Below, piece after piece: positions 24,509 to 54,925 of a stretch of 64,000 nucleotides of DNA. Below the pieces are notes generated by a model. It ran no database searches and was not told where the DNA came from. It worked only from the letters and a program-made list of their open reading frames with translations. The position numbers and the translations under genes are program-made. The DNA is from a virus. The stretch is from IMG/VR virus record IMGVR_UViG_3300045988_107814, positions 64,001 through 128,000 of that record; one strand, 5' to 3'. Position 1 is the first letter of the stretch. Each line of letters opens with the position of its first letter.

Positions 24509-24512
24509 TAAC

Positions 24513-24552
24513 AAAAAATAAACAGGACGTAAAGTCCTGTTTATTTCTTTTT
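24513..24552. terminator. bidirectional rho-independent terminator
   Basis: aaacaggac-gtaaa-gtcctgttt stem, flanked by an A-run and a T-run, between convergent genes. Confidence 0.8.
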
Positions 24553-24577
24553 GCTTTGTGAAGATATGTTTATAGTA

Positions 24578-24934
24578 TTACTTTTCTTGTGCTATTTCCC
24601 TTGCTATTTCTTTAATTTGAATTTTCTTTACTAAATAAATAACAGAATCGTTGTATTCGAAGAACGAATCAAATAATTTTTCATCGGCTTCAATCTGACT
24701 TTTAAATGCACTATAGCCAGAATTAATAATTGAGTGTTCACGAATAAATAAGTTTTCTAACATATTAATTTTAGATTCGTTCCTTCGTTTAATAGCCTTT
24801 AAAAATGATAAAGAGTAAGTAAGGTCAAGCATATTCTTGCATTCGTAAGGAATATTTCCAACCTTAAACGACTTTTTGATTGCACGATGAAACTTATTTG
24901 CTGCCGAAATAGCTACCTTAATATCGTTGGTCAT
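24578..24934 (-). CDS. hypothetical protein
   Basis: 118 aa, with an AAAGGGAG RBS that is part of conserved leader copy A. Confidence 0.7.
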   Translation of the reverse strand: MTNDIKVAISAANKFHRAIKKSFKVGNIPYECKNMLDLTYSLSFLKAIKRRNESKINMLENLFIREHSIINSGYSAFKSQIEADEKLFDSFFEYNDSVIYLVKKIQIKEIAREIAQEK

Positions 24935-25080
24935 GATAATGCCTTTCTCCCTTTAATGTCTGGGATCATAAGTTTTATACAAACTTATGATTACTTGCCT
25001 TTTGACAACTGGAGTAATTTGCAAGTCTCCAGTTATTGATATAGATAGAATGTATTCTCCTATTCACTATAATAATATAT
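24935..25080 (-). promoter_or_regulatory. conserved promoter plus 5' leader element, copy A
   Basis: On the minus strand it reads, in order:
- ATATATTATTATAGTGAATAGGAGA (25056-25080)
- hairpin aactggag-12 nt-ctccagtt (25007-25034)
- hairpin ataagtt-tgtataa-aacttat (24968-24988), which carries TGTATAAA in its loop
- ATGATCCCAGACATTAAAGGGAG (24947-24969), running into the ATG at 24934. Confidence 0.55.
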
Positions 25081-25127
25081 AAAGCAATAAATAAAATCTT
25101 ACACTTCTGTATATTTCTTGTATCTTG

Positions 25128-25143
25128 AACATATCTATAATTA
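25128..25143 (+). promoter_or_regulatory. candidate phage promoter, AACAT-N3-TATAAW class
   Basis: AACATATCTATAATTA is 15/16 identical to 6431-6446 and ends 26 nt before the ATG of the giant gene. Confidence 0.4.
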
Positions 25144-25169
25144 AAGAGTGAAAGGAGGTCATTATTTAT

Positions 25170-28100
25170 ATGGCTGTTTCAGTACAGAAATATATGAAGA
25201 ATATGATAAAATCTGTGGCGTATGGTACGTCAGATGTTTTATCTGAAAAATTTGAATATGTTAGGGACTTCAAAGAAGAAAATCAAGAAGTCTTTAAAGA
25301 AGCATATAGTGCAGTAAAAGATTATAAAAACACATATGCTAGAATCAAAAAAGCTATAGTAAATAATAAAGTAATGGATGCAGCTAGAATCGGTTATGAT
25401 TCTATGTTATATAGTATTACAACAGGCGATTTCTATGCAAAATCTAAAGAAGCCGAAGTAATGGATAAATATGGTGGTGATATATTAGACGGCTTTGATG
25501 TAGATAATGAAGATTTTGATTGGGATAATGAAGATTTATCTACTGGAGATAAAGTTATAGCTACAGCTATTAAAAAAAATGGCAAAGTTGGAACTGCTCT
25601 AACCATTGAAGCTGTTTCTCAAACTGGAAAAGCACAAATGGATGTAGCTAAAGAAAATACAATGTTATTATATACTCAAAATGAGCGTATGTTAAATAAA
25701 CTTGATACTGGATTTACTAATATAATGGGATTCTTAAAACAAAATGGAGAACAAACTGCTAAAATCCAGAATCAAATGAATGATAACTTAAATAAATTTA
25801 TGACTCATGTAGATAATAATGTAGAGAAATTAACTAAACAAATGGACGAATTACTTCAAATGCAAAGAAATATATATAATGGTCCAGAGCAAAAAGAGAA
25901 AAAACATAAAATAGGATATGATGATATTATAAGTAATAAAGGCGTTATTAATATAAAAGAATATGGAAAGCAAATTAAAAAACAAGCATTTGAAGCTGCT
26001 AATAATTTATCAGGTGGAATGCTAAGTCAAATGTTTGGAGAATCTATAAGCGGATCTAACTTATTAGCTACAGCAGCATCTACATTACCAAGAGATATAT
26101 TAAAAGGTATGATTAACAAAGCTCTCGGTGCTAAATTTGATCAAGCTGCCAAAGAATTAGATACAACTCTACAAGGAATTATTCCAACTCTAATGTCAAA
26201 GGCTAATGCTGCCGGTAGAGGAGATAATAAAATATTAAGTTTCTTAGGAAAAATATTTGGTATTAAAGATAAAAAGAATGAAAAAGTAGAAACTGATAAA
26301 TATAATAGAGGTGCTATACCATTTGATGGAGTGACTAAACGTGCTATAACAGATGTAATCCCATATTATTTGAGAAAGATGACAGCCTCTATGACAGGTA
26401 AACCAGAAATGGTATATGATTATCAATCTGGTAGATGGACTACTATGAGAGGTATTAAGCAAGAACATGAAAAAACAATGACAATGGCTAAAGATAGAAC
26501 AACCGGATTATTATTAAATATACTAGAAAGTAATATGGGTGGAAGAAGAATAAGCGATTCATTTAAAACAAAAGACGAATATGATAAATTTATGAAAGCT
26601 CTTGAATCCTATTCTAGTAGACTGTTATCAGCTGGTGATTTTGGTTCTATAAAAGAATCTGAATTAGATAGTAGTGCTCAAGAAGAAATTCATAAAGCAT
26701 TACGATATGTAATGAGATTAGATGATGATACTGGAAAAGATAGAAGATTTACTAAAGGAGCTAATGGCAAAAAAACAAGTTCTGGACTTGGAAGAAGTAG
26801 TATTGGTTCTTTATCTACTATATTAAGAGAATATAAGAATGCACAAAATGCCGCAATTAAAGCTATCAATGACGGCGATTCTACATTAAGATTAATTAAT
26901 GCAGAAGGCCTTGACAGAATAAGTTATGAAAGTTATTCTGATAAAGCGGGTGCTAATAAATATGGAGATTTAGATCAAAGATATATTCAAGATCTTCCAA
27001 TAACACAAGTATTATTAAGAGGCAAAGATGAATACGGTGTATCTATGTATCAATATTTAAGAGACATGGGTAAGAGTTTAAGATTTATTAAAGCTAATTC
27101 TGTATATCTTGCTGGAATTAATGGTACTGGTATAGGAGATGAATTATCAGAAGAAAAATGGAAATCCATATTTGAAAGTAATGGGTCTGGCGAAGGATTA
27201 TCTTATTCTGATGATAAACCTGCTAAGTATGCATTAGAATATTATAAGGAACAACACAAAGAAATTAAAAGAAAAGAAGAAAAAGGTTATGAATCTAGAA
27301 TTGCAAGAGCAAAAAATAGAGCCGAACAAAAAGGCGAATCTTTCTATGTTGCTGATGATTTTTATTCTTTTTCTTCTAAAGACGGTAAAACAGGTCTTAA
27401 AAAAATTATAACTACACAAGAAGAATCAAAAATAGCAAAGACAATTAAAGAAGAAGAAAAGGAAAGATTAAAGAAAGAAAAAGAAAGATGGGCTAATATA
27501 ACTGACATTGTTGGAGAAGATAGTGCAAAATTATTAAAAGATGCATCCGATGATTTTGATAGTTCTGAATCATTAAGTAAAAATATGAGTAAAGTTAAAG
27601 ATAAAGGCTTTGCTGCTAATTTAATGATGTTTGCTAAATGGGCTACTAATAAAGTGGGTAACCCAGCTAATGCGGCTGCTGATGCTGTTATAAAAGTAGA
27701 TTATTGGTTACAAAAATTAATTTATGGTGAAGATTTAAAAAGTGATGATAAAAAGACAGGATTTTTTACAAGAGTAAAGGATTCAATTAAAGATGGGTTT
27801 AAAACAGTAACTGATAAAATTCAAGAAGGATTTGATACTCTTAAAGAAAAACTGAAACCACTTAAAGAAAAATACTTGGATCCAATATTAGAAAAAGTTT
27901 CTAATACGTTATTTGGTACAAAGGATGGAGATGGTATTAGAAGTGGCGGAATATTAGGTGGTTTTATAGGAGGAATTCAAAAAGGTATAAGAAAAAATAC
28001 AGCGGATGTAGAAAGATATGCTAAAGAAAAAGCTAAAAAATTTGGTAATAAAGCAAAGCAAATTTTTAATATAAGTGAAGAACCAAAAGCAACTCCACCT

Positions 28101-31100
28101 AAACCTGAACAGAAAAAAGTAGAACCTCTTACAGTTCTTACACCAGGACAAGTTAAATTTAAAGAAAAAATTCAAAATACTAAAGATCAAATATATAAAT
28201 TAAGAAGTGCTATAAGTTCTAGTATGAAATATATAAAAGAACTAGAGGACAAAATTTCATATATAAGTGATGGTCTTAAGACATTTAGTAAAAAGAATGT
28301 AGAATATTATTCAGAGGAACAATATAAACTTGACAAACAAGAAAGAACAGCGTATCAAATTCAATTAAATGAAGAAAAAGCAAAATTGAAAAAATTAAAA
28401 AATACATTAAGCAAAAAGATAAAAACATACAATTCTATGGTAAAACATGCTCTGTCTATAGGTATTAATGATTTTCAATTAATTGATGAGAATGGTGCAG
28501 ATGTTAAAACAATGGCTGTTGGTGGTGTGAATAAAACTGGCAAATCATTCCAATCTGTATTATCTGCTGGTGAACTTCATAATGGTGTACCAGTAAGATC
28601 TATGGGTATATATACCATTAATCCTGGTGATACAGTTGTTAACCCAGCTAGTGCATCTACAAGATCTAGACAAGCTAGAGCAGAGAAAAATTATCTAAAC
28701 AATATTAAACGAAACGCTGAAGCTAACCAAAAGCTATCTCCAGATGAACAAGTTCCTAGTGAAACAGAACAAAAAGAAGATCCAAATAAATTTGCTGAAT
28801 TAATGACAAATAAAGACTGGACAGAATTAACTGATAAGAAGCAAAGAGCTGAATTCTTAGGAAATGTGGCTAGTAGAGGTCTTATTGGCGGTGGTCTTGG
28901 TCTGTTAGTAGGTGGTCCTTTATTAGGTGCTGCTGTTGGTGCTGCTTCTTCATTAACCAAATCTACCGATGCTTTCTCAAGTCTGCTATTTGGCGACGCT
29001 ATTAAAGATAAAGATGGTAATGTTCAAGTTGATGAAGATGGTAAAATTGTTAGATCAGACAATGGTCTTATTTCTAAAGAAATTATGAAGGCTATGCCAG
29101 ATGTTAAGAAGTTTGGTATTGGTGGTGCTATTGCAGGTCTCATCACCCCTCTAGGTCCATTAGGTGGTATTCTAGCAGGTTCAGCATTAGGATTTGCAAA
29201 AAACTCTGAAATATTCCAAGGTTCTTTATTTGGTGATGGTGGTATATTCTCTGATAAGAATGTAAATAAACTTAAAAAAGGTGCTAAGAATATTGGTGCT
29301 GGTGCTATTATCGGTGCTATTGCTATGCCTGGTCCTTTTGGTTTATTAGGAAATGCTCTTATTGGTGCTACAGCTGGCTATATAACTTCTACTGACAAAT
29401 TCAAAGATGCTTTACTTGGCGAAAAATCTGATCCTAATGATCCAAATAGTAAACGTCAAGGTGGTATTGTTGGTGGAATTAAAGATGCTTTACGTCCTAT
29501 GAAAGATTTCGGTCTGCATCTACGTGATAATATTATGGATGAAATCTTTGGTAAGGATGAAGGCGATGGTCGTAAGGGTGGACTATTTGGTGCTATTAGA
29601 GATAATATGGTAACTCCTATTATCGAAGGTGGTAAATCTGTATTCCAAACTTTGCAAAATAATGTATCTGATATGGCTCATCTATTAGGTGATGCTTATA
29701 AAAAATTTAGAGCAAATCACGCTGGTAATGATTTCTTTGGTGGATTAATTGAAAAAGCAGATAAACTTACTGGAGGTGCTATTAAAGGTGCTGGTTCTAT
29801 TGGTAGGGCTATGACTAAACCATTTAGACTTTTAGGTGACGATGGTATTGGTGGAATGCTTACTGCTAGACGTATTAAAAATGGTACAGAAATAGGTAAA
29901 TCTGCTACGCAAAGAAATATATTTAGAACAAAACATAACCTAGGCATAGGTGATAAATATGCTAAAGCTGACCAAGTAATGGCCAACATGTCTAGAGAAG
30001 ATCTACTAATGGCTCAATCATTATTAGAATTTGGCGACAATACTGATATGATTGATCAGGCTAGAGATAATGACTATGCTATTTTAGGTCAAGAATTAAG
30101 AAAGAATCTAAATAGATCAGATGCTAAAAAAGTTATTAAATTAATAAAAGATGGTAATATTGCCGAAGCACAAAAATTTGCTAGAACTAGAAAAGTATCT
30201 GATGATTCAAAGAAAAATGTAGAATCCTTAATTAGTAATCACCAATATAAATTAGATCAGTATAAGAGTACTAAAAAGAGAATTGAAAGTCTTGGTAAAG
30301 ATTCTCAAACTATTTTAAAAGATTTGGGGTTAAAAGTAGATACTAAAGATCCAAAATCTGTAAGATATTTAAAGAAACAATTGTCTAAAGAAATTGCTCA
30401 TCAAGATGCTGGTTTAACTGATGAAGAAATAGCATTTAAAAAGCAAGAAGAAATGTGGAAAGGTAAAGATTCTCCATTAACTGTAGTTAATACTGGTGTA
30501 ACAACTGTTGTAGAATTATTACAACAGATTAAACTTGGTAATGAATATGACAATCTTCCTGCTAGTGAAAAAGCAAAATACTCTAAAACTGAATATATTA
30601 ATTCTCATAAAACTACAGCTGATACAGAAACACAAGTTAAGAAAACTGCTGTAGGAAAAGGTGTACAACCATCTGTAGCTGTAAACCCTCAAGCTAACTT
30701 ATATAAGAAAATGGAAGATATTAAAAATGAAGAATATATGAAGTCTCTAAAAGAAGTATCTGATAGAGGTGTTAAAATTTTCAACAACTTAGTTGCAGAA
30801 GATTTAAGAGATCCAGAAAAAATAGAATTCGATATAGCAGCTCAATATAGTGTGTCTGAAGATGGTTCTGATGGTAAACCAAAATATGAACCAAATAAAA
30901 AGTTAATCCGTAATATTAAAATTACTAGATTTAAAAAGACATATGAATTCGATGTTACCTATACATGTAATGAAAAAGGTGATGTTTCATTAACTACTGA
31001 TCAAGAAGAAACATTTACTATTGCTAGAGATTCTTTTGTTAGTGAATATATGAGAAAATTCATTCCTAAAGATCGTAAAGAAATAATTAAAAATATGAAC

Positions 31101-34100
31101 TTTGGTGATATGATTAGAACTTCTGTTAAGGCTGCTGGAATAATTGCTATTGCATCTGTAATACCTGGTGGTATCTTTGCAGTTGGTGGCTTTAAACTTG
31201 CCAAGTCTATTAATAAACATTTCGATCTTACTGGAAAAGCTAAACGTCTAACTAAAAAAGGTATTAATAAAGTATCTATGGGTGTTAAGAATAAGCTAGG
31301 TTCTCATGACTTAGATATGCAATCTAGACACCAAAAGAAAAAAGAAAAGAAATATAATAAGAAAGCTAATAAAGCATTAAATGAAGCTATAGAACACAAC
31401 GATCCTAGACTTGATCAAATTGCTCAAGAACAATTTGGACAGAATTATGCTGATCTAGAAAGAAAGCAAAAATATACAGTAAATGATATATTTAGAGAAG
31501 AGGTTAAAAACGAAAAAAGATCTTGGCAAGCTTCTGGTCATGGTTTAGTTGGTAATATAAAAGCTATTGGTAAAAATATGGGCACACTTAAAACTAAAGC
31601 ATTTAATGCAGCCAAAGCTCTAAAAGAAAAGGAACAAGAGAAAGATAACTTTATTGGTAAATTCTTTAATAAATTAGACAAATGGAAAATTAAAAATGAT
31701 AAACGTAAATTTGAAGGCAAGTCCAATCCATTAACTAAAATAATTAAATGGTTATTTGTTGGTGGCATTGCTACTCCTATTCTTGTAGGATTTGTTAAAG
31801 ACAAGATTATGCCAGCAATACATGATAAGATTCAACCATGGTTAAAGAAAGCTGGAGAAAAGATAATTGGTAAAAAGAATCAACAGACTGGTGAATATGA
31901 AGGCGGTATTGTATCTGGTATAGTAAATCCAATTAGAAACTTCTTTAAAGATAAATTCCAAACTATACACGACTGGTTCCATAATGATGGTAAATTTACA
32001 AGTAATGATACTGGTTTTAAAGGCTTCTTAGGAAACTTTGTAAATGTATTTAAGTATGGTGTAAAACTATGGCAAAGTGGTGCTAATACAATTATAAATG
32101 ATGTATTACCTGGATTTGTAGAGGCTATTGTTTCTAAGTTACCAGATATATTAAAATCTGTAGGTAAAGGTATTGTTGATGGTATTGCTTCTTGGTTTGA
32201 TAAGAAAGATGGTACTGGTAAACAATCTCTTGATAAAATTGATGGTTCTATGGTATCTGGTGGCGGTGGTAATACTAGAGCAAATACGAATACTGATAAT
32301 TCTACAATAGAGTTTAATAACACTGTAGGTGGAAAATTCTCTATGGAAGCACCTAAATACATGGGTTCTGGACCAGATTATAGTAGTATTCAAGTAAATG
32401 ATGCATTAGCAGATACATCTCAAACAAAGAATAAAGATGGTACTACTACAATAACAAATAAAGATAATGGTAAAAATGTTACTACAGAAAAAATTAATGA
32501 TGACGAAATGGTATCTGCTGGTGTTAATGCATCTGGAACAGAAATTTTCTATAAACTTTCTGATACAAATAGAACTCAGCCATATTCAAAAACAGGTGAT
32601 GGCCAATATTTAAGAATAGATAATCAAACAGATGTAATGAATAATACATTACAAGATAATACAAGTTTTCAAGAAATGATTGAAAATGATAATGCCGGTA
32701 ATGCTGGTGTTACAAATTCTTATACTGGCACAACTCCTGGATTAGATAATGCTATTAAAGGAACTAAAATCGGTGTTAAAGCACTCACTTCTAAGTCTGG
32801 TGCTAAAGGTCTTACACTGGCTCTTAAAGCCGGTGGTAAAACTATTAAAACAGTTGGTAGAGTTGCTTCTATTCCTGTTGGTGGTAAACGTAGTATAGCT
32901 GGTAAAGTAATAACTAAAACAACTAATGGATTAGGAAATATTGTAGAAAAAGGTGCTGATAAACTTTCTAACGATATATTTAATGTAGGTCAGAAAATAA
33001 CAAACAAAGCATTATCAAAGAGTAAAACACTACAAAAAGTAAATGAACTAGGATTAAAGATAAATGATTCTTGGATGAATAAATTCGGACATGGTCAAAA
33101 TAAACTAGATGCACTTGATAGAAGTATTGATAGAGCACTTGAAAAAGGTGATACTGCTAAAGCAGAAAAATTATTAGACAAAGCTACTAAAGTTGAAGAT
33201 AAAATAAATAATGGAAATGTCTTTAGTAAATTTAAAGATAAGGCTACTTCAAAAGTTAAGAATAGTAAAGCTGGTCAAGCTGTTACTAAAGTTAGCGAAG
33301 GTGCTAAAAATATAAAAACAAAAGCTAAAGATGTTGTTAAGAAAACTAAAGTAGGACAAGCAGCTACAAAAGTTAAAGGCGTAGCTGATGATGCTGTTAA
33401 ATCTGTAAAAGGAATATTCGAAAAAGCTAAAAAGAGTATAGTAGACTGGTTTAAGAAATTATTTAAAAATGGTACATTTAAGAAAGCACTTAAAGAAGCT
33501 GGTCAAGAAGCAAGTGATGAAGCTATTGAAAAAATGGCTAAAGAATCTGGTGAAAAACTAGTTAAGGAATGTGCTGAAGAGGGTGCTGAAAAAATTGCTA
33601 AAGCAGCTGGTAAGAATGCTATAGCAACTGCATCTGATGCAACTGGTATTGGTGTTGTTATTAATATAGCAATGGCTGTAGCAGACTTCGCACTGGGTAT
33701 GGATGATTGCAGAAACATTCTTCAAATAACAGATAAAGAAATTCCTATATCTTGGAGAATATTTGCTGGTCTTGCTAATGCACTTCAAGATATTCCAGCT
33801 GTAGGTATCATATTCGGCATTATCGGTGCTAAAAATATCGTTTATTTCTTAATTGATATTCTAGGTCCTATTATTGCTCCTGATGCAACCAAAAAGATAA
33901 GAGAAAAACAAAAACAAGCTGAAGAAACAGTAGCTGAATATAATAGACAACATAATACAAATCTTACATTAGAAGAATATAATAATAAATTTAATAAAAC
34001 TTTCTCTAGTGTTACTAAGGGATTAGCAGCCGATGCAGGTTCTTTCTTATCTGGTAGAGATGCTACAGTATCTCAATCAATGGAGTCTAGACGTATTGTT

Positions 34101-37100
34101 GAAGATGCCGGTAAAAAAGTAACTAAAATAAGAAAGAAACTAGAAGATATTGCTTCTCATATGTGGGAAAAAGAAGGTAAAAAGTTTAAAGGCTTTAATC
34201 TTACTAAAGAAACATATGGTACATTATGTGCAGAAGTAATTGATAAAATTGTAATGTTGCTAAATGGTTTAGATGAAGATAAATTAGATAAAGTTTTAGA
34301 ATCTGCTGGTAAAATGAGAATGAACTTTGCTGAAAATTATGGTAGTGGATATGTTAAAGTTCTTACATTTGGTGCTGTTGATTTGGACCCATTTGTAGAC
34401 GCTTGGGATGACGGTTATAAAGGTTTGTCATACTTAGGTCTAGATGAGGATAAATTTGAAAATACAGACGTGGTTAAATGTATTGGTGGTATTGCATCTG
34501 TATTTGTAAAATCATGTGGCGGTGCTAAATTAAAAGGAAAAATCATTGATATAGTAATTACTACATTCTGTAAGGGAATGTCAGCTGATGGTAAAAAAAT
34601 TGGTGAAAATGAAAAGAAAATGATAGAAGAAAGCGGTAAAGATATAGAAGAAATAAATAATCAATATACAGCAGTTCAGCAACAATTTAAAGAAGCTGGT
34701 CAAGCTCAATCAGTTGCTATTGATTCTAACGGTAATGTAACTACTGATAATATTGTAACAAATGCAAATGCTAATAATAAACTTTCTACTACCAATACTT
34801 TACAAACAGCAACTTCTCCATTAAGTAAAATCAGTAATAAATTTTCTGAAATTATAAATAATGCAGTTGGTGGATTTACTGGCGGATTAGATAATATTGA
34901 AGAATTGTTTAAATCTTTATCTAGTAAAAATAAGAGTACTAATGAAGCAATTGATGCTATGACACTATTACCAACTGATAAGAAATATTGGAAAATAGAA
35001 TTAGATAATACGAATCCATTTGTTAGTGCTATATTTAACTTTATGGAATCTATGAACAGAGTTGTTAAAGCTCCATTTGCATTAGCAGCAGCTTCTCTAG
35101 GTAGTGGTCTTGAAGTTATTTCTAGTAACTCTGCTGATAATGGTGGATCTGCTCAAACTGTAAATGATTCTAGTGGTAATACTGGAAGTTCAACAGCTTC
35201 TACTAATAATGCTTCTTCTGGTTCTACATCTTCTAAGAGTAGTGGAGGATTCTTAAGTAAAGTAGCAAGTAAAGGTAAAAGTATATTAAAGAAAATTGGT
35301 GGTGCATTTAAGAGTCTATTTGGTAGAGGTGCTGATGATGAATATACCGATGATACAGGTTATGGTGATGATCCATTCCATATTTATCAAAGAGACTATA
35401 AGAGATCATATAAAACAAATGGTGATACAGAAAATCAAACAGTAGCAGATTCTGGTTGTGGCCCAGCCGCAGCAGCTTCTCTATTAAGAATGTATGGTAA
35501 AAACGGTAATATGAATAATGCTGTTAGTTATGCACTTAATAATAACTACAAGGAAGTAAATGGTGGTACTTATCCACAATACTTCAATGATTATCTAAAT
35601 AAAAATGGTATTAGTACTAACTCTAATGCAAATAATAGAGATGTGGTAAATAGTCTTATTCATAATAAACCAGTTATATTAATGGGTCAAGATGCATCCA
35701 ATAGTGGTAGAACTCCATATGGATCTAAGTATTCTCACTATGTCGTTGCTAGAGGACTTGATTCTAATGGTAATGTAATAGTAGAAGATTCTGAAGATAA
35801 AAAGGGTTCTACTAGATATAGCCTTGCTGATACTTTAAGAAATTCTTCTGTAAGAATTACTACAGGTAGTGGAAAATATGGCAGAGCTAAAGGCACTGTG
35901 TTAGATAACTTTGTTAGTGGTGTTAACTCTGTAATGGCTTCTTCTGTTACAAGCATCTTAGGCAACTTATCTAGCAGTATAGGATATAGCGATAGTAGTA
36001 GCGGTAGCACATCATCTAGTGGTAATACTGGTAGTAGCGGTGGTACTGTTATCGCTGGTACTAATGGAACAATAAGTGATCTAACAAAAGACTCCGATGT
36101 TAAAACAAAATGTGGTTATACAGCTGAACAATTAACAGCCGCTATTAAAGCTATACATCCAGAAGGTTGCTCTGCTGAACAATTCCCAGAAGCAGCTATT
36201 AATGTAGAAAAATCTAAAGGTCTTAATGCATTATTTATAATTGCTGCTGCTATTCAAGAACATGGATGGGATGGTAAAGTTGGTATTAATACAACAGGTG
36301 CTAACTGGGGTAACTGGAATGTATTTAATATTATGGGTAGTCCACATGCTTCTAATGGTCGTTGGAAAGACTATAATGATCTTACTGATGCATTTAGTGG
36401 ATTCGGTGATCTTATTCTAGGTAGCACTTATTATGGTGCTGGATTAAAAACGCCTGAAGCGATTGGTAATAGATATTGTCCTCCAGATTTAGAAGAAAAT
36501 GCAAATTACGGTCAATGGGGCGAATCAGTATGTAATGTTGCTCAAAATATTGTAAAACACATTCCTACTTCTGGATCTGGTCGTGGTAATAATAAGATTG
36601 AACCAGCAATAAATAAAAAATTAATAAATAATATTACAGACTCTATTAGTTATGGAACAGTATCTGCTCTTAATGGCGGATCTGGTAAATGGGGTCGTGA
36701 TGGTGAAGAAGATACAACAACCGCTGATGATACCACAACAACAGATACTTCAACAGAAACAACTGATAGTACTACAACTACTACTAATACATCATCATCT
36801 AGTTCTAGTAGTGCTTCTGAATCTGCTGGATTATTAAGTAAACTAACTGAATATACAACTAATCTTACTAAGGGTGTATTTGGAGATTTTTACGATGCAT
36901 TATATGGTAAAACAGAAACAAGTACAACCACACCAACATCTGGTAATACTATTACTGGTACATTATCTTCTGGTGATTCAATTGCTAATATGAAAACCTT
37001 ATTTAGTTACTTTACATCTCAAGGATTAAGTGATAATTTAGCTGCCGGTATTCTTGGTAATATTAAAGCTGAATCTGGTTTTAATCCTAACGTATTATAC

Positions 37101-39161
37101 GGTGGTGCTATTGGTACTGTATTTGATCAGCAATCATTAGCATATGGTCTAATTCAATGGACAGGTACTGATGCAAGAGCTAGCTTATATAACTGGTGTA
37201 CTGCAAATAACTGTGATCCTGATACACTGGATGGCCAAGCTAAATGGATTGTTGCTCAAATTAAAGGTATAAATCTAAACGATGAAACAAATACTGCTAA
37301 TGCTTCTAAATTTAATGGTAGTACTGGTAGAGGTACTATGACATATAATGCTCAATTATTTAATGCTAGAGGTTCATTTGAAACATTTAATACTTATTCT
37401 ATAGAAAAAGCTACAAAATTATGGCTAGAATGTGTAGAAAGACCTGGTGATGTAAATAGTTTCTTACAAGCTAGAGTAGAAAATGCTAAGCAAATACTTG
37501 CAGAATGTAAAGGAACTAGCAGTGGTTCTGGAAGAGGTAGAGGAATAATTAATAAAGCTTTATCTAAACCTAATAAACTAAGAAAGAGAAGATTTGGCAG
37601 AGGTATTTGGGGTCGTGATGGTGAAGAAGAAACAACTACCACTACAACAACCACCACAACGACAGAAGCAGCAGATACTTCTACATCTGAAGATGAAAAT
37701 ACTGGTGTAACATATAGTAGTCCTATAGGTCCAACTAAACCAGATAACTCTACTGATGATACTACAACAACCAATGATTCCGATACAACATCGAGTACAG
37801 GTAGTAATGGTAGTGATACTCTATTAAGTAAACTTACAGATTACGCTTCTAAAGCTGTTAAGGGAGTATATGGTGATTTCTATGACGCATTATATGGATC
37901 TGATACATCTTCCAATGAATCTGATGCTTCATTATCTAATGTAACTGGAAATAGCACTATAACTCAAGGAACTGGTGTGCCATATGAAACTTATAAACAC
38001 TGGAAACAAGGTGATTATGGAACATATCCAGCACCTTGGGCAAGTAAGAACATTGCAACTGGTGGGGGATATGATACATGTGCTGATAGCGGTTGTGCAC
38101 TTGTATCCTCGGCTATATTATTAGTACACTCCGGATCTATAACCGATAGTTCATTTGACCCTGGTGTATTTATTGATGACGTTGTTGCAAGAGGAGCTAC
38201 AAATTATAAGGGTGAATGGTCAAGTCTAGATACATTAATGGATTATAAAAATTCTGGTATTATGACAGGTGTAGATTATCAAAAATGGTGTTTTGGTCAA
38301 GACTTCACTCAATCTGCATCTTGGGATACTATATATAATACATTATTAAAACAACTACAAGATGGTTATTATGTAATGATACGTGTATCTATTCATGGTA
38401 CTTGTGGTCACTTTGTAGCGTTAGATTATATTGATACGTCTTCTAAAACTATCTATATAATGGACCCTGGTTCATCTCATAAAGAAAATTTAACTGATTA
38501 TTCTGGAAGAATTCTTGGTTACGCAACATTTAAAACCAATGCATCTAATGCTAGTCAATATATTTTAAATGGTAAAAGAAGTGGCTCTGGTAGAGGTAAA
38601 TTTAGCAAGAATACATCTTCGTTTACAGGTAGAGGAAATGATAATAAATATACATTTGCTAATATTAATTCTTCTGTAAATAAGAGAATTGGTAGACAAA
38701 TGATGAAATATACTAAACCTGAGCATTTCTATCCACCTACTGGACAAGGAAGAGGTGTATCTGGTTTAGTAAGTTATGATCAAATTAAAAATAACACAAA
38801 GTCTACTTCTACAACATCAATGACTACTCCTACTAATAACAATAATCAAATAATTGCTTCTAACAATTATATTGGTTCAGCTTCTACTATCGGAACTTCT
38901 TCTGGTGGTAACGGTATAGATTTGAATCAATTAATTAGTTTAATATCTATTATAGCAAACAATGCTGATAAGATGGATGCAATATTACAGTTATTAGGAG
39001 CCATTGCAACTAATACTCAAAATACATCTACAGCTATTTCAAATAATAATAAATCTAAAACAACAAATAATAACGGTCTATCTGCATTGAGAAATGCATT
39101 AGATTCAAATAGTTCTGGAATAGATATTGCAAAAGCAGTTTATCAAATAGCAAAAAGTTAA
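25170..39161 (+). CDS. giant virion-associated multidomain protein (tape-measure or ejection-protein-like) with four C-terminal peptidoglycan-hydrolase domains
   Basis: A 4663-aa uninterrupted ORF in AT-rich DNA, with a GAAAGGAGG RBS and a terminator.
- The N-terminal two thirds are K/E-rich and helical, with Gly-rich hydrophobic segments (28878-29385, about 31130-31200, about 31745-31800, about 33640-33880).
- C39-like Cys peptidase 1: ADSGCGPAAAASLL, Cys at 35457; SHYVVARG, His at 35735.
- GH73-like glucosaminidase: AIQEHGWDG...NVFNIMG, about 36110-36560.
- Phage-tail-lysozyme-like domain: LAAGILGNIKAESGFNPN...YGLIQWTG, about 36990-37500.
- Cys peptidase 2: ADSGCALVSSA, Cys at 38094; GHFVALDY, His at 38408. 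Confidence 0.85.
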   Translation: MAVSVQKYMKNMIKSVAYGTSDVLSEKFEYVRDFKEENQEVFKEAYSAVKDYKNTYARIKKAIVNNKVMDAARIGYDSMLYSITTGDFYAKSKEAEVMDKYGGDILDGFDVDNEDFDWDNEDLSTGDKVIATAIKKNGKVGTALTIEAVSQTGKAQMDVAKENTMLLYTQNERMLNKLDTGFTNIMGFLKQNGEQTAKIQNQMNDNLNKFMTHVDNNVEKLTKQMDELLQMQRNIYNGPEQKEKKHKIGYDDIISNKGVINIKEYGKQIKKQAFEAANNLSGGMLSQMFGESISGSNLLATAASTLPRDILKGMINKALGAKFDQAAKELDTTLQGIIPTLMSKANAAGRGDNKILSFLGKIFGIKDKKNEKVETDKYNRGAIPFDGVTKRAITDVIPYYLRKMTASMTGKPEMVYDYQSGRWTTMRGIKQEHEKTMTMAKDRTTGLLLNILESNMGGRRISDSFKTKDEYDKFMKALESYSSRLLSAGDFGSIKESELDSSAQEEIHKALRYVMRLDDDTGKDRRFTKGANGKKTSSGLGRSSIGSLSTILREYKNAQNAAIKAINDGDSTLRLINAEGLDRISYESYSDKAGANKYGDLDQRYIQDLPITQVLLRGKDEYGVSMYQYLRDMGKSLRFIKANSVYLAGINGTGIGDELSEEKWKSIFESNGSGEGLSYSDDKPAKYALEYYKEQHKEIKRKEEKGYESRIARAKNRAEQKGESFYVADDFYSFSSKDGKTGLKKIITTQEESKIAKTIKEEEKERLKKEKERWANITDIVGEDSAKLLKDASDDFDSSESLSKNMSKVKDKGFAANLMMFAKWATNKVGNPANAAADAVIKVDYWLQKLIYGEDLKSDDKKTGFFTRVKDSIKDGFKTVTDKIQEGFDTLKEKLKPLKEKYLDPILEKVSNTLFGTKDGDGIRSGGILGGFIGGIQKGIRKNTADVERYAKEKAKKFGNKAKQIFNISEEPKATPPKPEQKKVEPLTVLTPGQVKFKEKIQNTKDQIYKLRSAISSSMKYIKELEDKISYISDGLKTFSKKNVEYYSEEQYKLDKQERTAYQIQLNEEKAKLKKLKNTLSKKIKTYNSMVKHALSIGINDFQLIDENGADVKTMAVGGVNKTGKSFQSVLSAGELHNGVPVRSMGIYTINPGDTVVNPASASTRSRQARAEKNYLNNIKRNAEANQKLSPDEQVPSETEQKEDPNKFAELMTNKDWTELTDKKQRAEFLGNVASRGLIGGGLGLLVGGPLLGAAVGAASSLTKSTDAFSSLLFGDAIKDKDGNVQVDEDGKIVRSDNGLISKEIMKAMPDVKKFGIGGAIAGLITPLGPLGGILAGSALGFAKNSEIFQGSLFGDGGIFSDKNVNKLKKGAKNIGAGAIIGAIAMPGPFGLLGNALIGATAGYITSTDKFKDALLGEKSDPNDPNSKRQGGIVGGIKDALRPMKDFGLHLRDNIMDEIFGKDEGDGRKGGLFGAIRDNMVTPIIEGGKSVFQTLQNNVSDMAHLLGDAYKKFRANHAGNDFFGGLIEKADKLTGGAIKGAGSIGRAMTKPFRLLGDDGIGGMLTARRIKNGTEIGKSATQRNIFRTKHNLGIGDKYAKADQVMANMSREDLLMAQSLLEFGDNTDMIDQARDNDYAILGQELRKNLNRSDAKKVIKLIKDGNIAEAQKFARTRKVSDDSKKNVESLISNHQYKLDQYKSTKKRIESLGKDSQTILKDLGLKVDTKDPKSVRYLKKQLSKEIAHQDAGLTDEEIAFKKQEEMWKGKDSPLTVVNTGVTTVVELLQQIKLGNEYDNLPASEKAKYSKTEYINSHKTTADTETQVKKTAVGKGVQPSVAVNPQANLYKKMEDIKNEEYMKSLKEVSDRGVKIFNNLVAEDLRDPEKIEFDIAAQYSVSEDGSDGKPKYEPNKKLIRNIKITRFKKTYEFDVTYTCNEKGDVSLTTDQEETFTIARDSFVSEYMRKFIPKDRKEIIKNMNFGDMIRTSVKAAGIIAIASVIPGGIFAVGGFKLAKSINKHFDLTGKAKRLTKKGINKVSMGVKNKLGSHDLDMQSRHQKKKEKKYNKKANKALNEAIEHNDPRLDQIAQEQFGQNYADLERKQKYTVNDIFREEVKNEKRSWQASGHGLVGNIKAIGKNMGTLKTKAFNAAKALKEKEQEKDNFIGKFFNKLDKWKIKNDKRKFEGKSNPLTKIIKWLFVGGIATPILVGFVKDKIMPAIHDKIQPWLKKAGEKIIGKKNQQTGEYEGGIVSGIVNPIRNFFKDKFQTIHDWFHNDGKFTSNDTGFKGFLGNFVNVFKYGVKLWQSGANTIINDVLPGFVEAIVSKLPDILKSVGKGIVDGIASWFDKKDGTGKQSLDKIDGSMVSGGGGNTRANTNTDNSTIEFNNTVGGKFSMEAPKYMGSGPDYSSIQVNDALADTSQTKNKDGTTTITNKDNGKNVTTEKINDDEMVSAGVNASGTEIFYKLSDTNRTQPYSKTGDGQYLRIDNQTDVMNNTLQDNTSFQEMIENDNAGNAGVTNSYTGTTPGLDNAIKGTKIGVKALTSKSGAKGLTLALKAGGKTIKTVGRVASIPVGGKRSIAGKVITKTTNGLGNIVEKGADKLSNDIFNVGQKITNKALSKSKTLQKVNELGLKINDSWMNKFGHGQNKLDALDRSIDRALEKGDTAKAEKLLDKATKVEDKINNGNVFSKFKDKATSKVKNSKAGQAVTKVSEGAKNIKTKAKDVVKKTKVGQAATKVKGVADDAVKSVKGIFEKAKKSIVDWFKKLFKNGTFKKALKEAGQEASDEAIEKMAKESGEKLVKECAEEGAEKIAKAAGKNAIATASDATGIGVVINIAMAVADFALGMDDCRNILQITDKEIPISWRIFAGLANALQDIPAVGIIFGIIGAKNIVYFLIDILGPIIAPDATKKIREKQKQAEETVAEYNRQHNTNLTLEEYNNKFNKTFSSVTKGLAADAGSFLSGRDATVSQSMESRRIVEDAGKKVTKIRKKLEDIASHMWEKEGKKFKGFNLTKETYGTLCAEVIDKIVMLLNGLDEDKLDKVLESAGKMRMNFAENYGSGYVKVLTFGAVDLDPFVDAWDDGYKGLSYLGLDEDKFENTDVVKCIGGIASVFVKSCGGAKLKGKIIDIVITTFCKGMSADGKKIGENEKKMIEESGKDIEEINNQYTAVQQQFKEAGQAQSVAIDSNGNVTTDNIVTNANANNKLSTTNTLQTATSPLSKISNKFSEIINNAVGGFTGGLDNIEELFKSLSSKNKSTNEAIDAMTLLPTDKKYWKIELDNTNPFVSAIFNFMESMNRVVKAPFALAAASLGSGLEVISSNSADNGGSAQTVNDSSGNTGSSTASTNNASSGSTSSKSSGGFLSKVASKGKSILKKIGGAFKSLFGRGADDEYTDDTGYGDDPFHIYQRDYKRSYKTNGDTENQTVADSGCGPAAAASLLRMYGKNGNMNNAVSYALNNNYKEVNGGTYPQYFNDYLNKNGISTNSNANNRDVVNSLIHNKPVILMGQDASNSGRTPYGSKYSHYVVARGLDSNGNVIVEDSEDKKGSTRYSLADTLRNSSVRITTGSGKYGRAKGTVLDNFVSGVNSVMASSVTSILGNLSSSIGYSDSSSGSTSSSGNTGSSGGTVIAGTNGTISDLTKDSDVKTKCGYTAEQLTAAIKAIHPEGCSAEQFPEAAINVEKSKGLNALFIIAAAIQEHGWDGKVGINTTGANWGNWNVFNIMGSPHASNGRWKDYNDLTDAFSGFGDLILGSTYYGAGLKTPEAIGNRYCPPDLEENANYGQWGESVCNVAQNIVKHIPTSGSGRGNNKIEPAINKKLINNITDSISYGTVSALNGGSGKWGRDGEEDTTTADDTTTTDTSTETTDSTTTTTNTSSSSSSSASESAGLLSKLTEYTTNLTKGVFGDFYDALYGKTETSTTTPTSGNTITGTLSSGDSIANMKTLFSYFTSQGLSDNLAAGILGNIKAESGFNPNVLYGGAIGTVFDQQSLAYGLIQWTGTDARASLYNWCTANNCDPDTLDGQAKWIVAQIKGINLNDETNTANASKFNGSTGRGTMTYNAQLFNARGSFETFNTYSIEKATKLWLECVERPGDVNSFLQARVENAKQILAECKGTSSGSGRGRGIINKALSKPNKLRKRRFGRGIWGRDGEEETTTTTTTTTTTEAADTSTSEDENTGVTYSSPIGPTKPDNSTDDTTTTNDSDTTSSTGSNGSDTLLSKLTDYASKAVKGVYGDFYDALYGSDTSSNESDASLSNVTGNSTITQGTGVPYETYKHWKQGDYGTYPAPWASKNIATGGGYDTCADSGCALVSSAILLVHSGSITDSSFDPGVFIDDVVARGATNYKGEWSSLDTLMDYKNSGIMTGVDYQKWCFGQDFTQSASWDTIYNTLLKQLQDGYYVMIRVSIHGTCGHFVALDYIDTSSKTIYIMDPGSSHKENLTDYSGRILGYATFKTNASNASQYILNGKRSGSGRGKFSKNTSSFTGRGNDNKYTFANINSSVNKRIGRQMMKYTKPEHFYPPTGQGRGVSGLVSYDQIKNNTKSTSTTSMTTPTNNNNQIIASNNYIGSASTIGTSSGGNGIDLNQLISLISIIANNADKMDAILQLLGAIATNTQNTSTAISNNNKSKTTNNNGLSALRNALDSNSSGIDIAKAVYQIAKS
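36689..36908 (+). repeat. intragenic linker module, copy 1 (WGRDGEE, Thr/Ser-rich tract, LLSKLTEY..GDFYDALYG)
   Basis: Begins with the 23-nt string tggggtcgtgatggtgaagaaga, which is identical at 37608-37630. It has the same protein architecture as copy 2. Confidence 0.85.
37608..37898 (+). repeat. intragenic linker module, copy 2 (WGRDGEE, poly-Thr, LLSKLTDY..GDFYDALYG)
   Basis: See copy 1. Includes a run of eleven Thr codons. Confidence 0.85.
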
Positions 39162-39167
39162 AATAAT

Positions 39168-39200
39168 AGAGGGTTGGATTGCTCCAACCCTCATATTTTT
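39168..39200 (+). terminator. rho-independent terminator after the giant gene
   Basis: agagggttgga-ttgc-tccaaccctc stem followed by ATATTTTTA. Confidence 0.8.
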
Positions 39201-39208
39201 ATGTCAAG

Positions 39209-39222
39209 AACATTAGTATAAT
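39209..39222 (+). promoter_or_regulatory. candidate phage promoter, AACAT-N3-TATAAW class
   Basis: AACATTAGTATAAT lies directly after the terminator and 29 nt before the ATG at 39252. Confidence 0.35.
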
Positions 39223-39251
39223 ATTCAAAATAATAATAAGGAGGTTTAGTA

Positions 39252-41513
39252 ATGGCTTACAATTATGTATACCCACTAAATATGAATAAGATAGCGGAAA
39301 CATTTTATGCTAAAAAAGCAAGCGATCTATCTAATAGTGGATTTTATATTATGTGTAAAACTGATACTAATATTTATGCATCTAGTGAAAAAGCACTTGC
39401 AAATGCAAATGTAACAACAGAAACAGATAAAGCAATGATGAGAATAAAAGGTAAATCGTCTGCTAAAATATATGATGTAGTTAAAGATCATAATAGAATA
39501 TTGGTTAAAATATACGCAGGTGCTAAAGAAGCTTGGTTATATATTGGAACAGTACAAGCATATGGTAGTTCAACAGGTAGCTATTATAGATGGACAGTTG
39601 GCCCTACAGTTAATATAGGTGCAACGAAAAATTGTCTTAAAAAATTTAATATAAGACGATTTAAAGAATCAAATACACCTAATAGATATGCTAATTTAAA
39701 TTTAAGTGTAACAGAAATAGATGCTAGTAGAGTATTGAAAACAAATCAAAGCGAAATAGATGGTGCTGATAATAATACTGAAGAAAAAAGAACAAATACA
39801 ACAGATAATATAACTAGTACTAGTACAGCAACTGGAGAATCTGGAGTAACATATGAATTTGCTGTAAAGGCTGCTCCAAATACTTACTATTATGATATTG
39901 GTAAGTATATAAGAGATAACTCTTATGAAGCATATGCATCTCAAAATAATATAAATTCTGGCATTGATTATAGTAAACTTAAATATATTTTTGGCATTCC
40001 ATATCAATATCTTCCTACAACAGATTGTAGAGTTGGGGATGATTTCTCAGATGAAATAGAACAAGCTGGATATGAATTTGCTGACAAAATTATATCTAGA
40101 ATGCCACTATTATATGTAACTCCAGGTAATACATCTTTTATGGGTAATGCCGGTTCTAAAGAAAATTACAGAACTTTTTTACTTGGTAAATTAGGTGTAA
40201 GCGGTGCTACATCTGGAGAAAATGATATAATGGAATCTTCTCTAGAAACTATGCTTGGAGAATACAATGGTAAACTATATACATTAACTCCAGCATATAA
40301 AGAATATTTTGAATATGTAAATCCATTATGTCGTGCTGGTGCAATATTCTTAGATATTGGAGAATTATCATTTGAATCTGAGACAACAAGTGGAACTAAT
40401 AAATTTCAAAACTATAACTGGGGTATTAACCAAGGTATAGCATATGAGATATATACCGAAGAAGAAAGTACAGAAGATGATACTAAAAAAAGTGATACTA
40501 AAGATGAGGAAGAAAATACAGATAATGCAGATGGGAAAAAGGCTAAATTTGATGAAGATTATTCTGATTTCTTTGAATCTACTATAACCAAGATCAGTGA
40601 AAAAATAAGTGATTTTGAGAGTAGATTATATTACGGTAACTCTATAGCTTTCTATATAAATTCCGATGCATCGTTTCAAGATTCTTTTGGTAATGAAACA
40701 ACAGAATCTTCTTTATCTTCTCTTATAAATGGTTTATCTGATAAAGCTAGAGAAATACAATTCTTATTGGGCACTTCTAGACAAATGGTTGGTGAAGCAT
40801 TTGATAAAGTAGACGGTACTCTTGGTCCAATAAAACAGCAAATTGATAATATAGTTAATAAAGTTGCTGGTGGTAACTCTATATTTACTACAATTGCAAA
40901 TAGTGTTAAAACTATTGTTTCTGGCGGTAGGTTACAATTTCCACAAATATGGTCTAATAGTTCTTTCTCAAAATCTTATAGTATATCTATTAAATTAAAT
41001 ACTCCAAGTACAGATAGAGTTTCTTGGTGGTTAGATATATATGTGCCACTTTGTCATCTTATGGGATTAATTCTTCCTAGATCTGAATATATTAACTCTT
41101 ATACTACTCCATTTATTGTAAAAGCATTCTATAAGGGTATGTTTAATATAGATATGGGCATTATAACAGAAATGACATTCACTAAAGGTAAAGAAGGCTC
41201 ATGGACTAAAGATGGCTTACCTACTGTAGTCGATGTAAGTTTCACTATTCAAGACTTATATAGTACGATGTCTATGACATCTACAGAAAGTATGTTTAAA
41301 GGAAAAACATTACAGAATGTAGCTGAGATGGATTATATAGCAAACTTATGTGGTATTAATATAAATGAGCCTGATATATTTAGAATGATTAGATTATGGT
41401 GTGTATTCAATATTTCTAATAGAGTATACGACTTTATTCCTAACCTTGAAATGGGAGTTGAAAAGTATATTGGTAATAGAGTATTAAGTGCTTATAATAA
41501 TTTTTGGTTTTAA
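39252..41513 (+). CDS. hypothetical protein (probable virion protein by position)
   Basis: 753 aa, with a TAAGGAGG RBS. It immediately follows the giant gene. Confidence 0.75.
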   Translation: MAYNYVYPLNMNKIAETFYAKKASDLSNSGFYIMCKTDTNIYASSEKALANANVTTETDKAMMRIKGKSSAKIYDVVKDHNRILVKIYAGAKEAWLYIGTVQAYGSSTGSYYRWTVGPTVNIGATKNCLKKFNIRRFKESNTPNRYANLNLSVTEIDASRVLKTNQSEIDGADNNTEEKRTNTTDNITSTSTATGESGVTYEFAVKAAPNTYYYDIGKYIRDNSYEAYASQNNINSGIDYSKLKYIFGIPYQYLPTTDCRVGDDFSDEIEQAGYEFADKIISRMPLLYVTPGNTSFMGNAGSKENYRTFLLGKLGVSGATSGENDIMESSLETMLGEYNGKLYTLTPAYKEYFEYVNPLCRAGAIFLDIGELSFESETTSGTNKFQNYNWGINQGIAYEIYTEEESTEDDTKKSDTKDEEENTDNADGKKAKFDEDYSDFFESTITKISEKISDFESRLYYGNSIAFYINSDASFQDSFGNETTESSLSSLINGLSDKAREIQFLLGTSRQMVGEAFDKVDGTLGPIKQQIDNIVNKVAGGNSIFTTIANSVKTIVSGGRLQFPQIWSNSSFSKSYSISIKLNTPSTDRVSWWLDIYVPLCHLMGLILPRSEYINSYTTPFIVKAFYKGMFNIDMGIITEMTFTKGKEGSWTKDGLPTVVDVSFTIQDLYSTMSMTSTESMFKGKTLQNVAEMDYIANLCGININEPDIFRMIRLWCVFNISNRVYDFIPNLEMGVEKYIGNRVLSAYNNFWF

Positions 41514-43798: not shown

Positions 43799-43811
43799 TT
43801 ATTAATATGTT
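43799..43811 (-). promoter_or_regulatory. candidate phage promoter, AACA-N3-TAWTAA class
   Basis: The minus strand reads AACATATTAATAA. It overlaps the stop of the 1473-aa gene and lies 21 nt before the ATG at 43777. Confidence 0.3.
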
Positions 43812-54828: not shown

Positions 54829-54925
54829 AACTTTAATTATAAACATATAAATAAAATGTGTGTAAATCTTTTGATATTGAAAAGTATTAAAGTATATAAC
54901 AACACTAAACAAGGAGGTAAAATTA

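Follow-up and report, generated by a model that had tools for sequence, protein, structure and literature searches.

Jumbo phages are already known to encode giant tape-measure-like proteins that bear lysin domains, and the protein described here does not represent a new kind of biology. The closest described relatives are g204 of Bacillus phage AR9 (PBS1 gp95), a protein of 1925 amino acids (aa) annotated as 'tail tape measure protein' or 'lysis domain protein'; g083 of Yersinia phage phiR1-37 (2553 aa), a 'putative tape measure tail fibre protein' that is listed among the virion structural proteins (PMC4848604); JD-Fnp1_176 and JD-Fnp4_101 of Fusobacterium phages (3026 and 2978 aa, respectively), both annotated as 'papain-like cysteine protease'; and, in Staphylococcus jumbo phages, DC4_259 (1962 aa, 'tail lysozyme'). 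Homologs of the MarsHill type have been put forward as candidate tape measures or tail lysins with helical structure and transmembrane segments (bioRxiv 10.1101/2020.12.14.422802). We analyzed a 64,000-nucleotide (nt) stretch of viral DNA (IMG/VR virus record IMGVR_UViG_3300045988_107814, positions 64,001 to 128,000), hereafter the window, in which one open reading frame (ORF) of 13,992 nt (25170-39161, plus strand, with an ATG start and a TAA stop at 39159-39161 that is included in the coordinates) encodes 4663 aa. Judged by sequence comparison, the giant protein is an ortholog of AR9 g204, phiR1-37 g083, JD-Fnp4_101 and DC4_259, and it belongs to a known, poorly characterized family of lysin-bearing tape-measure-like tail proteins.

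The relationship was most evident at the N-terminus. A seven-sequence alignment of AR9 g204, phiR1-37 g083, JD-Fnp4_101 and metagenomic orthologs, together with tblastn and the profile phrog_26249, delimited an N-terminal domain common to all (aa 1 to ~480; 25170-26609, plus strand). It contains the core motif Y-x-[KR]-G-x-IPFDG-x-T-[KR]-x-AI-x-D-VIP-x-YL (aa 378-401; 26301-26372, plus strand), and F385, D386, G387, T389, I393, V396, I397, P398 and L401 are invariant in the alignment. Both the domain and the motif of the AR9 g204/phiR1-37 g083 family were therefore present in the window protein. When the first 3000 aa were used in tblastn, the only matches were giant proteins of AR9/PBS1-type, BpSp, phiR1-37 and JD-Fnp1/4/6/7 phages, all confined to aa 8-527 and mainly to aa ~280-530 (AR9, E = 1e-9), and in PHROGs the AR9 g204 family (phrog_26249) was matched over aa 6-439 (E = 2e-12). 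A PDB profile search with the N-terminal domain returned nothing. Searches of 5.8 billion proteins gave only 4 matches for the N-terminal 1200 aa, where the word filter saturates on low-complexity sequence, and only fragments without Pfam labels for the hydrophobic core.

The overall architecture is also shared, as are several features of the phages themselves. AR9 g204 has the same ~480-aa N-terminal domain and glycine-rich hydrophobic segments ahead of a C-terminal wall hydrolase, and AR9 and the window phage are alike in a downstream gene block, multisubunit RNA polymerases and an AACA-N6-TA late-promoter motif. However, AR9 g204 is much shorter (1925 versus 4663 aa), is ~24% identical in the N-terminus only, and has one hydrophobic cluster and one lytic domain (a VgrG3-like C-terminal muramidase), compared with three clusters and three or four lytic domains in the window protein. 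The JD-Fnp and phiR1-37 proteins resemble it in the N-terminal domain, the giant single ORF, a C-terminal lysin (C39 or SLT) and an end of the form ...IA.., and differ in being shorter, in having a single lytic domain and in the Gram-negative hosts of their phages. DC4_259 combines the N-terminal motif with Phage_lysozyme2, as in the window, and additionally contains NlpC/P60. Adjoining it is DC4_260 (1990 aa, 'tape measure'), a weaker paralog; Staphylococcus jumbo phages have two paralogs of ~1960-1990 aa, in contrast to the single protein of 4663 aa in the window.

The giant ORF is a real single gene. The first-pass annotation, made from the window sequence, had described an uninterrupted frame representing one gene rather than several, and further evidence agreed with this. 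At the composition of the window (GC content of 0.30), ORF calling would be expected to meet a stop about every 12 codons, and the chance of 4663 stop-free codons is ~1e-177. The identical 4663-aa product was called on five separate contigs, of which one measured 192.5 kb and the other four 0.2-1 Mb, and contigs of 219-221 kb also carried the giant gene. Its 90%-identity cluster included six full-length variants of 4651-4688 aa that were 95-97% identical; every one of the 12 indels among them was in frame. In IMG/VR, where ortholog ends were traced by stitching overlapping loci, six orthologs of 5000, 5000, 5075, 5084, 5137 and 5147 aa were uninterrupted and ~53% identical over the whole length. 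The opposite view, that the frame is an assembly chimera, an error-made fusion of several genes or a pseudogene, could draw on stops located 35-61 nt from the contig end in two short contigs (L005 and L007) and on a rumen ortholog (L006, STEW19-1 scaffold_256) with a lone in-frame TGA at codon 1050 (L006:3449-3451), which the gene caller divided into 1049 and 3887 aa. Yet L006 remains colinear across its TGA, over more than 4383 codons, and because of the 5 contigs, the in-frame variants, the six intact long orthologs and the odds of such an open frame, an artefact or pseudogene is excluded for the window; we give it a negligible probability. Sequencing error, a nonsense mutation of recent origin and read-through are all conceivable for the TGA of L006. 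Stop-codon recoding (code 4) in the relatives was rejected, because it would rest on one TGA in more than 4383 codons that is aligned with a non-conserved Tyr and not with Trp. Scans of the window for tRNAs and Rfam families gave no match, so nothing pointed to introns within the giant ORF or close to it.

The protein had also been called exceptionally large, which is true against cultured phages and less so within its own family. Among cultured phages, the largest tape measure for which we found a description is gp183 of Bacillus phage G, with 2893 aa and a tail of 450 nm (PMC8570332); the window protein is 1.6 times as long. In gp183, a myophage tape measure whose layout recalls that of the window protein, a long region made up of helix (50%) and coil (44%) is combined with C-terminal LytD glucosaminidase and peptidase domains (PMC8570332). 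We searched 1.84 billion representative proteins with aa 1-560 using phmmer and found 1040 clusters that share the N-terminal domain, 351 of them at E<=1e-30. Lengths of 2500 aa or more were reached by 130 of the best 150 of these 1040 clusters, of 4000 aa or more by 55 and of 4663 aa or more by 17, with a maximum of 6902 aa. The 118 representatives that had the family C-terminus ranged from 2808 to 5883 aa (median 3879 aa), and 15 of the 118 were at least as long as the window protein, placing it in the top ~13%: large within the family yet not unique. Relatives that match or exceed it in size probably number in the hundreds in metagenomes. The IMG/VR loci gave a similar size picture, and near-complete contigs among them were mostly ~150-313 kb. 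Internal duplication was considered as a source of the size and rejected, as self-BLAST detected no repeats and hhalign only one short, weak element. This element recurs at aa ~891-963, 1437-1518 and 2209-2255 (nt ~27840-28058, 29478-29723 and 31794-31934), with the pattern of a helix, FG.KD..G and GG[IL].GG[IF]; hhalign of ortholog sub-alignments related the copies with probabilities of 55-65% and E of ~1e-4. It may be an ancient repeat unit of the spacer.

Between the N-terminal domain and the lytic domains lies a spacer (aa 560-3400) that is proline-poor, K/E-rich in places (K+E content of 9-34% per 100-aa window) and interrupted by three glycine-rich hydrophobic clusters. The earlier description of this region as lysine/glutamate-rich and helical was thus correct for composition in places, and its helicity is weakly backed: an AlphaFold model of aa 600-1799, based on a 5-sequence alignment, had 61.5% helix (69%, 38% and 72% in its parts) at a mean predicted local distance difference test (pLDDT) score of only 43.5. 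The first part (aa 560-1100; 26847-28469, plus strand) was modeled as 69% helix with low confidence, and a Foldseek search of the aa 600-1799 model against PDB gave only generic coiled-coil or helical matches (E>1). The membrane-type segments proposed previously were recognized. Seven are present between aa 1238 and 2902, all on the plus strand: three in cluster 1 (aa ~1230-1400, 28857-29369; segments aa 1238-1256, 1317-1335 and 1375-1398), two in cluster 2 (31131-31796; aa 1988-2006 and 2191-2209) and two in cluster 3 (33645-33875; aa 2826-2844 and 2864-2902). The stretch around cluster 1 was the best conserved outside the enzymes, with 80-86% identity over aa 1200-1400 versus ~53% overall, and most sampled metagenomic and JD-Fnp members had a cluster at the corresponding point, 0.25-0.37 of the way along the protein. 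The length of the region that precedes the lytic domains was also conserved: it was 3419-3561 aa (a spread of 4%) among six sequences at ~53% identity, and most of the 340-480-aa size difference among orthologs was located in the C-terminal cassette.

That cassette had been predicted to carry four wall-degrading domains. Two are solid and a third is probable, and the fourth has no Pfam or PDB match. The first (aa 3426-3541; 35445-35792, plus strand) is a papain-like cysteine peptidase of the Pfam family Peptidase_C39_2 (E = 4.6e-13, 50 bits versus a cut-off of 24), 84% identical among orthologs. Domain 2 (aa 3674-3760; 36189-36449, plus strand) is a probable FlgJ-like GH73 N-acetylglucosaminidase; the Pfam Glucosaminidase score (21.6 bits, E = 3.6e-4) was under the cut-off of 30.2, and an ortholog profile searched against PDB matched FlgJ (E = 0.002). 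Domain 3 (aa 3940-4110; 36987-37499, plus strand) is a phage tail lysozyme (Phage_lysozyme2, E = 6.6e-26; phrog_512). PF18013 also occurs in the annotated tape measure/tail lysin of Staphylococcus phage Twort. Domain 4 (aa ~4240-4440; 37887-38489, plus strand) is a Cys/His domain (ADSGC ... GHFVALD) for which no match was obtained by Pfam at E<=1, by PDB phmmer or by a 3-sequence PDB profile; only 2 homologs were detected in 5.8e9 proteins, and a single-sequence AlphaFold model was unusable (pLDDT 38). In BLASTP, its only similarity to domain 1 was the active-site-like ADSGC stretch (E = 0.003). Five stitched orthologs (L009+L089, L013+L091, L011+L092, L012+L088 and L010+L093) had another Cys/His domain in place of domain 4 and, lying between the glucosaminidase-like domain and the lysozyme, an extra SGNH/GDSL hydrolase domain (Lipase_GDSL_2, E = 2e-6), which is possibly a peptidoglycan or teichoic-acid esterase. 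Cassettes elsewhere in the family were composed of C39_2, lysozyme2, CHAP or NlpC/P60 (metagenomic members), VgrG3-like (AR9), SLT (phiR1-37) or C39 (JD-Fnp4) domains. The lytic cassette is thus shuffled across the family, and among the orthologs this occurs with the spacer length kept. A wall hydrolase near the C-terminus was nevertheless constant, being present in all ten family members scanned, including the window protein (7/7 relatives in one scan). The C-terminal tail (aa 4560-4663; 38847-39158, plus strand) ends in ...AVYQIAKS, and its last 63 aa were 78% identical among orthologs; an ending of the form [ILMV]-A-x(1-6) was found in 118 of 130 long family representatives and in phiR1-37 g083. 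The window protein therefore has both the C-terminal hydrolase and the conserved end of the AR9 g204/phiR1-37 g083 family.

Short [F/Y/S]-G-[R/K]-G motifs bound the lytic domains (aa 3382-4530; window 35316-38600). SLFGRG (aa 3382-3387) precedes domain 1, and SGSGRG (aa 3801-3806), SGSGRGRG (aa 4118-4125) and SGSGRG (aa 4471-4476) follow domains 2, 3 and 4, respectively; RFGRG, FTGRG and GQGRG are further examples in the window protein. Most of the members examined had [FYW]G[RK]G and G[ST]G[RK]G nowhere but in the C-terminal third, and the estimated chance expectation of G[ST]G[RK]G is ~0.1 per 5000 aa. A related form, KYGRG.Y.KQ.DP, was located upstream of the first peptidase in relatives that are just 25-30% identical. 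Joint motifs were also found in loci L025, L027, L029, L032, L033, L052 and L065, and a tandem KFGRGKFGRG occurs. The motif may serve for processing, act as a hinge or mark a joint of recombination.

Gene order supports the assignment to the tail. The gene immediately downstream (39252-41513, plus strand) encodes a virion structural protein of 753 aa (phrog_20401; blastp to DC4_258, E = 3e-30) that is the counterpart of AR9 g205, and it is followed by a RusA resolvase (41679-42383, plus strand), a syntenic marker that corresponds to AR9 g208, phiR1-37 g086 and JD-Fnp1_174. On the minus strand, the region 43811-49571 matches AR9 g212-g213, with a homolog of the 1473-aa ORF and then the tube/virion protein; the latter is a tail tube protein (48255-49571, minus strand; Phage_TTP_15) in the position of AR9 g213. 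The whole segment 25170-49571 is colinear with AR9 g204-g213: the giant gene, the virion protein, RusA, small ORFs and the opposite-strand pair. In phiR1-37, g083, g085 and g086 are in the same order as in the window, and in DC4 the gene after 259 is 258, the homolog of the window ORF 39252-41513. The order in JD-Fnp1 is DNA polymerase, portal, giant gene, hypothetical protein and RusA (JD-Fnp1_176 to 174 colinear); JD-Fnp phages and the window have in common a DNA polymerase gene upstream and RusA nearby, the latter also in phiR1-37. The neighborhood of virion protein, RusA and tail tube block was thus conserved. A 118-aa opposite-strand ORF upstream of the giant gene was considered as a counterpart of AR9 g203, which is of equal size, and rejected, since it had no similarity to g203 or to any of g200-g203.

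Expression signals surround the gene. The strong ribosome-binding site noted before is the Shine-Dalgarno sequence AAAGGAGG (25151-25158, plus strand), 11 nt upstream of the ATG. Further upstream, 42 nt from the ATG, AACATATCTATA (25128-25139, plus strand; AACA-N6-TA) fits AACA-N6-T[A/G], the late-promoter consensus of the AR9 non-virion RNA polymerase (PMC7598289). It overlaps a TATAAT at 25136-25141, and the predicted transcription start at ~25139 would give the giant gene a 31-nt leader. The promoter-like motif reported by the first-pass annotation thus matches the AR9 late consensus; the promoter scan upstream of the ORF gave no full sigma-70 match, just the TATAAT. An intrinsic terminator, likewise anticipated, begins 8 nt past the stop (39169-39200, plus strand) and consists of a 10-bp stem with 6 G-C pairs and a 4-nt loop (39169-39192), after which comes a T-run. 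Four other ORFs in the window also have an AR9-type motif 34-45 nt upstream, about one such coincidence being estimated by chance: 6431-6442 (plus strand), upstream of ORF 6470-7420; 39209-39220 (plus strand, AACA-N6-TA), upstream of the virion gene 39252-41513; 43800-43811 (minus strand), upstream of ORF 42818-43777 (minus strand); and 49605-49616 (minus strand), upstream of the tail tube gene. All five motifs resemble AACAT-N5-TAAT. The AR9 late promoter is recognized only when the DNA contains uracil. Because AR9 reads such promoters only in this form, the motifs in the window raise the possibility that the DNA of the window phage may be deoxyuridine-substituted too. Sigma-70-like matches were depleted at window 24500-39400 (54 versus 81 +/- 9 in shuffled sequence), in line with transcription by polymerases of the phage rather than of the host.

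On balance, we think it probable that the giant ORF encodes a single late-expressed virion protein of the AR9 g204 family that acts as a tail-internal, tape-measure-like lysin. During assembly, we infer, the N-terminal domain and the ~3400-residue helical/coil spacer would reside inside the tail tube, with the conserved C-terminal end docked at the baseplate hub, and the protein would act as, or contribute to, the ruler of tail length. Upon sheath contraction it would be expelled with the C-terminus leading; the wall hydrolases (the cysteine peptidase, the GH73-like domain, the tail lysozyme and the fourth Cys/His domain) would then open the thick peptidoglycan, and the three glycine-rich hydrophobic clusters would enter the membrane and line a conduit for the DNA. 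The conserved pre-lytic length among diverged orthologs is compatible with a ruler, and the conserved, recurrent cluster 1 and the C-terminal hydrolases are compatible with ejection and a conduit. Tail lengths provide a further comparison: JD-Fnp4 has a tail of 300 nm (2978 aa) and JD-Fnp1 one of 335 nm (3026 aa), and the 233 nm tail of MarsHill (bioRxiv 10.1101/2020.12.14.422802) can be set against the ~1962 aa of the DC4 ortholog, which is not MarsHill's own protein. The ratio in these three cultured relatives is 0.10-0.12 nm per residue; by extrapolation, the window protein would correspond to ~470-560 nm.

Several observations weigh against this reading. No canonical tape-measure profile (PhageMin_Tail, TMP_2, Tape_meas_lam_C or the TIGR01760 TP901 core) was matched in Pfam (whole protein and 8 segments), NCBIfam (10 segments, E<=1) or PHROGs, and the NCBIfam scan found no family of any kind. 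No tail-chaperone pair was recognized upstream, where the neighbors are the DNA polymerase gene and the 118-aa opposite-strand ORF. The gene does not occupy the canonical position after a -1 frameshift chaperone pair and before baseplate hub genes, and the phage G order of sheath, chaperone pair and tape measure is likewise absent from the window. The helicity depends on the low-confidence model (pLDDT 43.5), and the tape-measure label of AR9 g204 is an annotation. At least 12 folded lytic domains per trimer could not fit, folded, in the tube lumen. Tails of JD-Fnp1 and JD-Fnp4 differ by 35 nm, and the proteins by only 48 residues. In Staphylococcus jumbo phages, two family paralogs serve one 233 nm tail, and protein length therefore need not track tail length. 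Thus, the virion part of the original tape-measure claim is supported by homology and synteny with annotated tail proteins, and the ruler role is not established, because two family paralogs coexist in the Staphylococcus relatives; the tail of ~500 nm proposed at the same time is an extrapolation, to which the missing tape-measure profile, the missing chaperone pair and the two paralogs are opposed. Finally, tblastn with the window protein and phiR1-37 g083 revealed no homology to phiKZ gp181 or SPN3US gp239, and neither query matched any Pseudomonas, Salmonella or Erwinia phage at E<=1e-3. The likeness to these proteins is by analogy only: phiKZ gp181 (2237 aa), a needle-like cell-puncturing lysin (PMC5380687), and SPN3US gp239, called a tape measure (PMC5105663), are also giant virion proteins of RNA-polymerase-encoding jumbo phages with a C-terminal muralytic domain.

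phiKZ gp181 nevertheless illustrates a different role, in which the protein would be a multi-lysin and ejection protein of the tail tip or baseplate that does not set tail length. The length would be set elsewhere, for example by a DC4_260-like paralog, and the spacer would span a thick envelope and form a channel. We regard this as unlikely. It agrees with the description of gp181 as a puncturing device (PMC5380687), with the missing tape-measure profile, with the discordant JD-Fnp tails and with the fact that, of the two Staphylococcus paralogs, it is the one labeled tail lysozyme and not the one labeled tape measure that is orthologous to the window protein; moreover, family lengths of 2800-5900 aa would otherwise mean that most of the uncultivated members have very long tails. 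However, neither a second family member nor another tape-measure candidate was visible in the 64-kb window, only one such gene was seen in the examined regions of AR9, phiR1-37 and JD-Fnp, diverged orthologs agreed in how long the non-enzymatic region is, and 0.10-0.12 nm per residue was roughly constant in the three cultured relatives. Far less plausible is an internal head protein of the T7 gp16 type, packaged with the DNA and ejected to build a trans-envelope conduit. Lysin domains and hydrophobic segments are also typical of T7-type ejection proteins, and the gene adjoins the DNA polymerase gene or, in JD-Fnp phages, the portal gene; but genes for a tail tube and for virion proteins share its syntenic block, and the relatives are annotated or described as tail proteins. 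In addition, the giant protein of SPN3US is absent from tailless particles (PMC5105663), an argument by analogy, not homology.

The motifs between the lytic domains suggest another possibility, one compatible with a tail-internal tape-measure-like lysin: a polyprotein cut at the [F/Y/S]-G-[R/K]-G joints into a helical/hydrophobic N-terminal product and free or tethered lysins. We consider such cleavage doubtful, slightly more so than the tail-tip role. SLFGRG, the three copies of SGSGRG, RFGRG, FTGRG and GQGRG are situated right at domain boundaries, the motifs are limited to the C-terminal third, the KYGRG form is retained in remote relatives, and the chance expectation is low. On the other hand, we know of no protease with this specificity, the motif could equally well act as a flexible hinge or mark the recombination joints of the observed domain shuffling, and the frame has been conserved as a whole together with its C-terminal docking end. 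A bolder combination, a processed polyprotein that is cleaved or hinged at these joints and releases or deploys four to five shuffled wall enzymes while its 3400-residue spacer, with the three hydrophobic clusters, serves as a half-micrometer tail core and then as a trans-envelope DNA channel, is in our opinion about as improbable as the tail-tip role.

The interest of the protein lies in the scale of the family (~1000 clusters of 3-6 thousand aa), in the very long tails that it implies and in the inter-domain motif. If the ruler scaling holds, the clade of the window protein and the members of 5000-5900 aa would have tails of ~0.5-0.7 micrometers. Very long-tailed phages have been observed by electron microscopy in rumen samples (bioRxiv 10.1101/356790), which this prediction, if true, would match. 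Many uncultivated jumbo phages of gut, rumen and oral origin would then have tails of 0.4-0.7 micrometers, exceeding those of every cultured phage except phage G, and virion morphology could be estimated from sequence alone, with the length of the giant protein as the proxy. In addition, the family offers a natural collection of shuffled peptidoglycan hydrolases carried by virions (C39-like, GH73-like, PF18013, CHAP or NlpC/P60, SGNH, SLT and VgrG3-like); that a conserved short motif joins them is of practical interest to enzybiotic engineering. Family proteins are now unnamed, misnamed or called 'hypothetical', and a definition by the N-terminal domain would fix ~1000 clusters. Published labels are inconsistent: DC4_260 and DC4_259 (MZ779063.1 249374-261258) are paralogs within one family, and DC4_259, a 'tail lysozyme', is orthologous to AR9 g204, a 'tape measure'. 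The name 'papain-like cysteine protease' of the JD-Fnp homologs covers one domain of ~3000 residues. A public source labels the window protein 'predicted phosphohydrolase', a name that no domain scan supports.

The source of the window is an uncultivated AR9/PBS1-like jumbo phage of ~220 kb with its own multisubunit RNA polymerase. Megablast of the giant ORF against GenBank phages gave no match, and its relatives derive from pig-gut and rumen assemblies, as judged by contig names. Other genes in the window include the beta' subunit of the multisubunit RNA polymerase (19415-21637, minus strand), nearest to Listeria phage LPJP1 and Bacillus phages AR9/PBS1; the family-B DNA polymerase that is the upstream neighbor of the giant ORF (22409-24508); and a helicase gene. 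At 53497-60280 (plus strand) there are five consecutive paralogous ORFs, two of which (53497-54828 and 54926-56197) are 72% identical; the remaining three are more weakly similar, partly in the N-terminus only. No Pfam family was found for any of the five, which are possibly diversified tail fibre or virion proteins.

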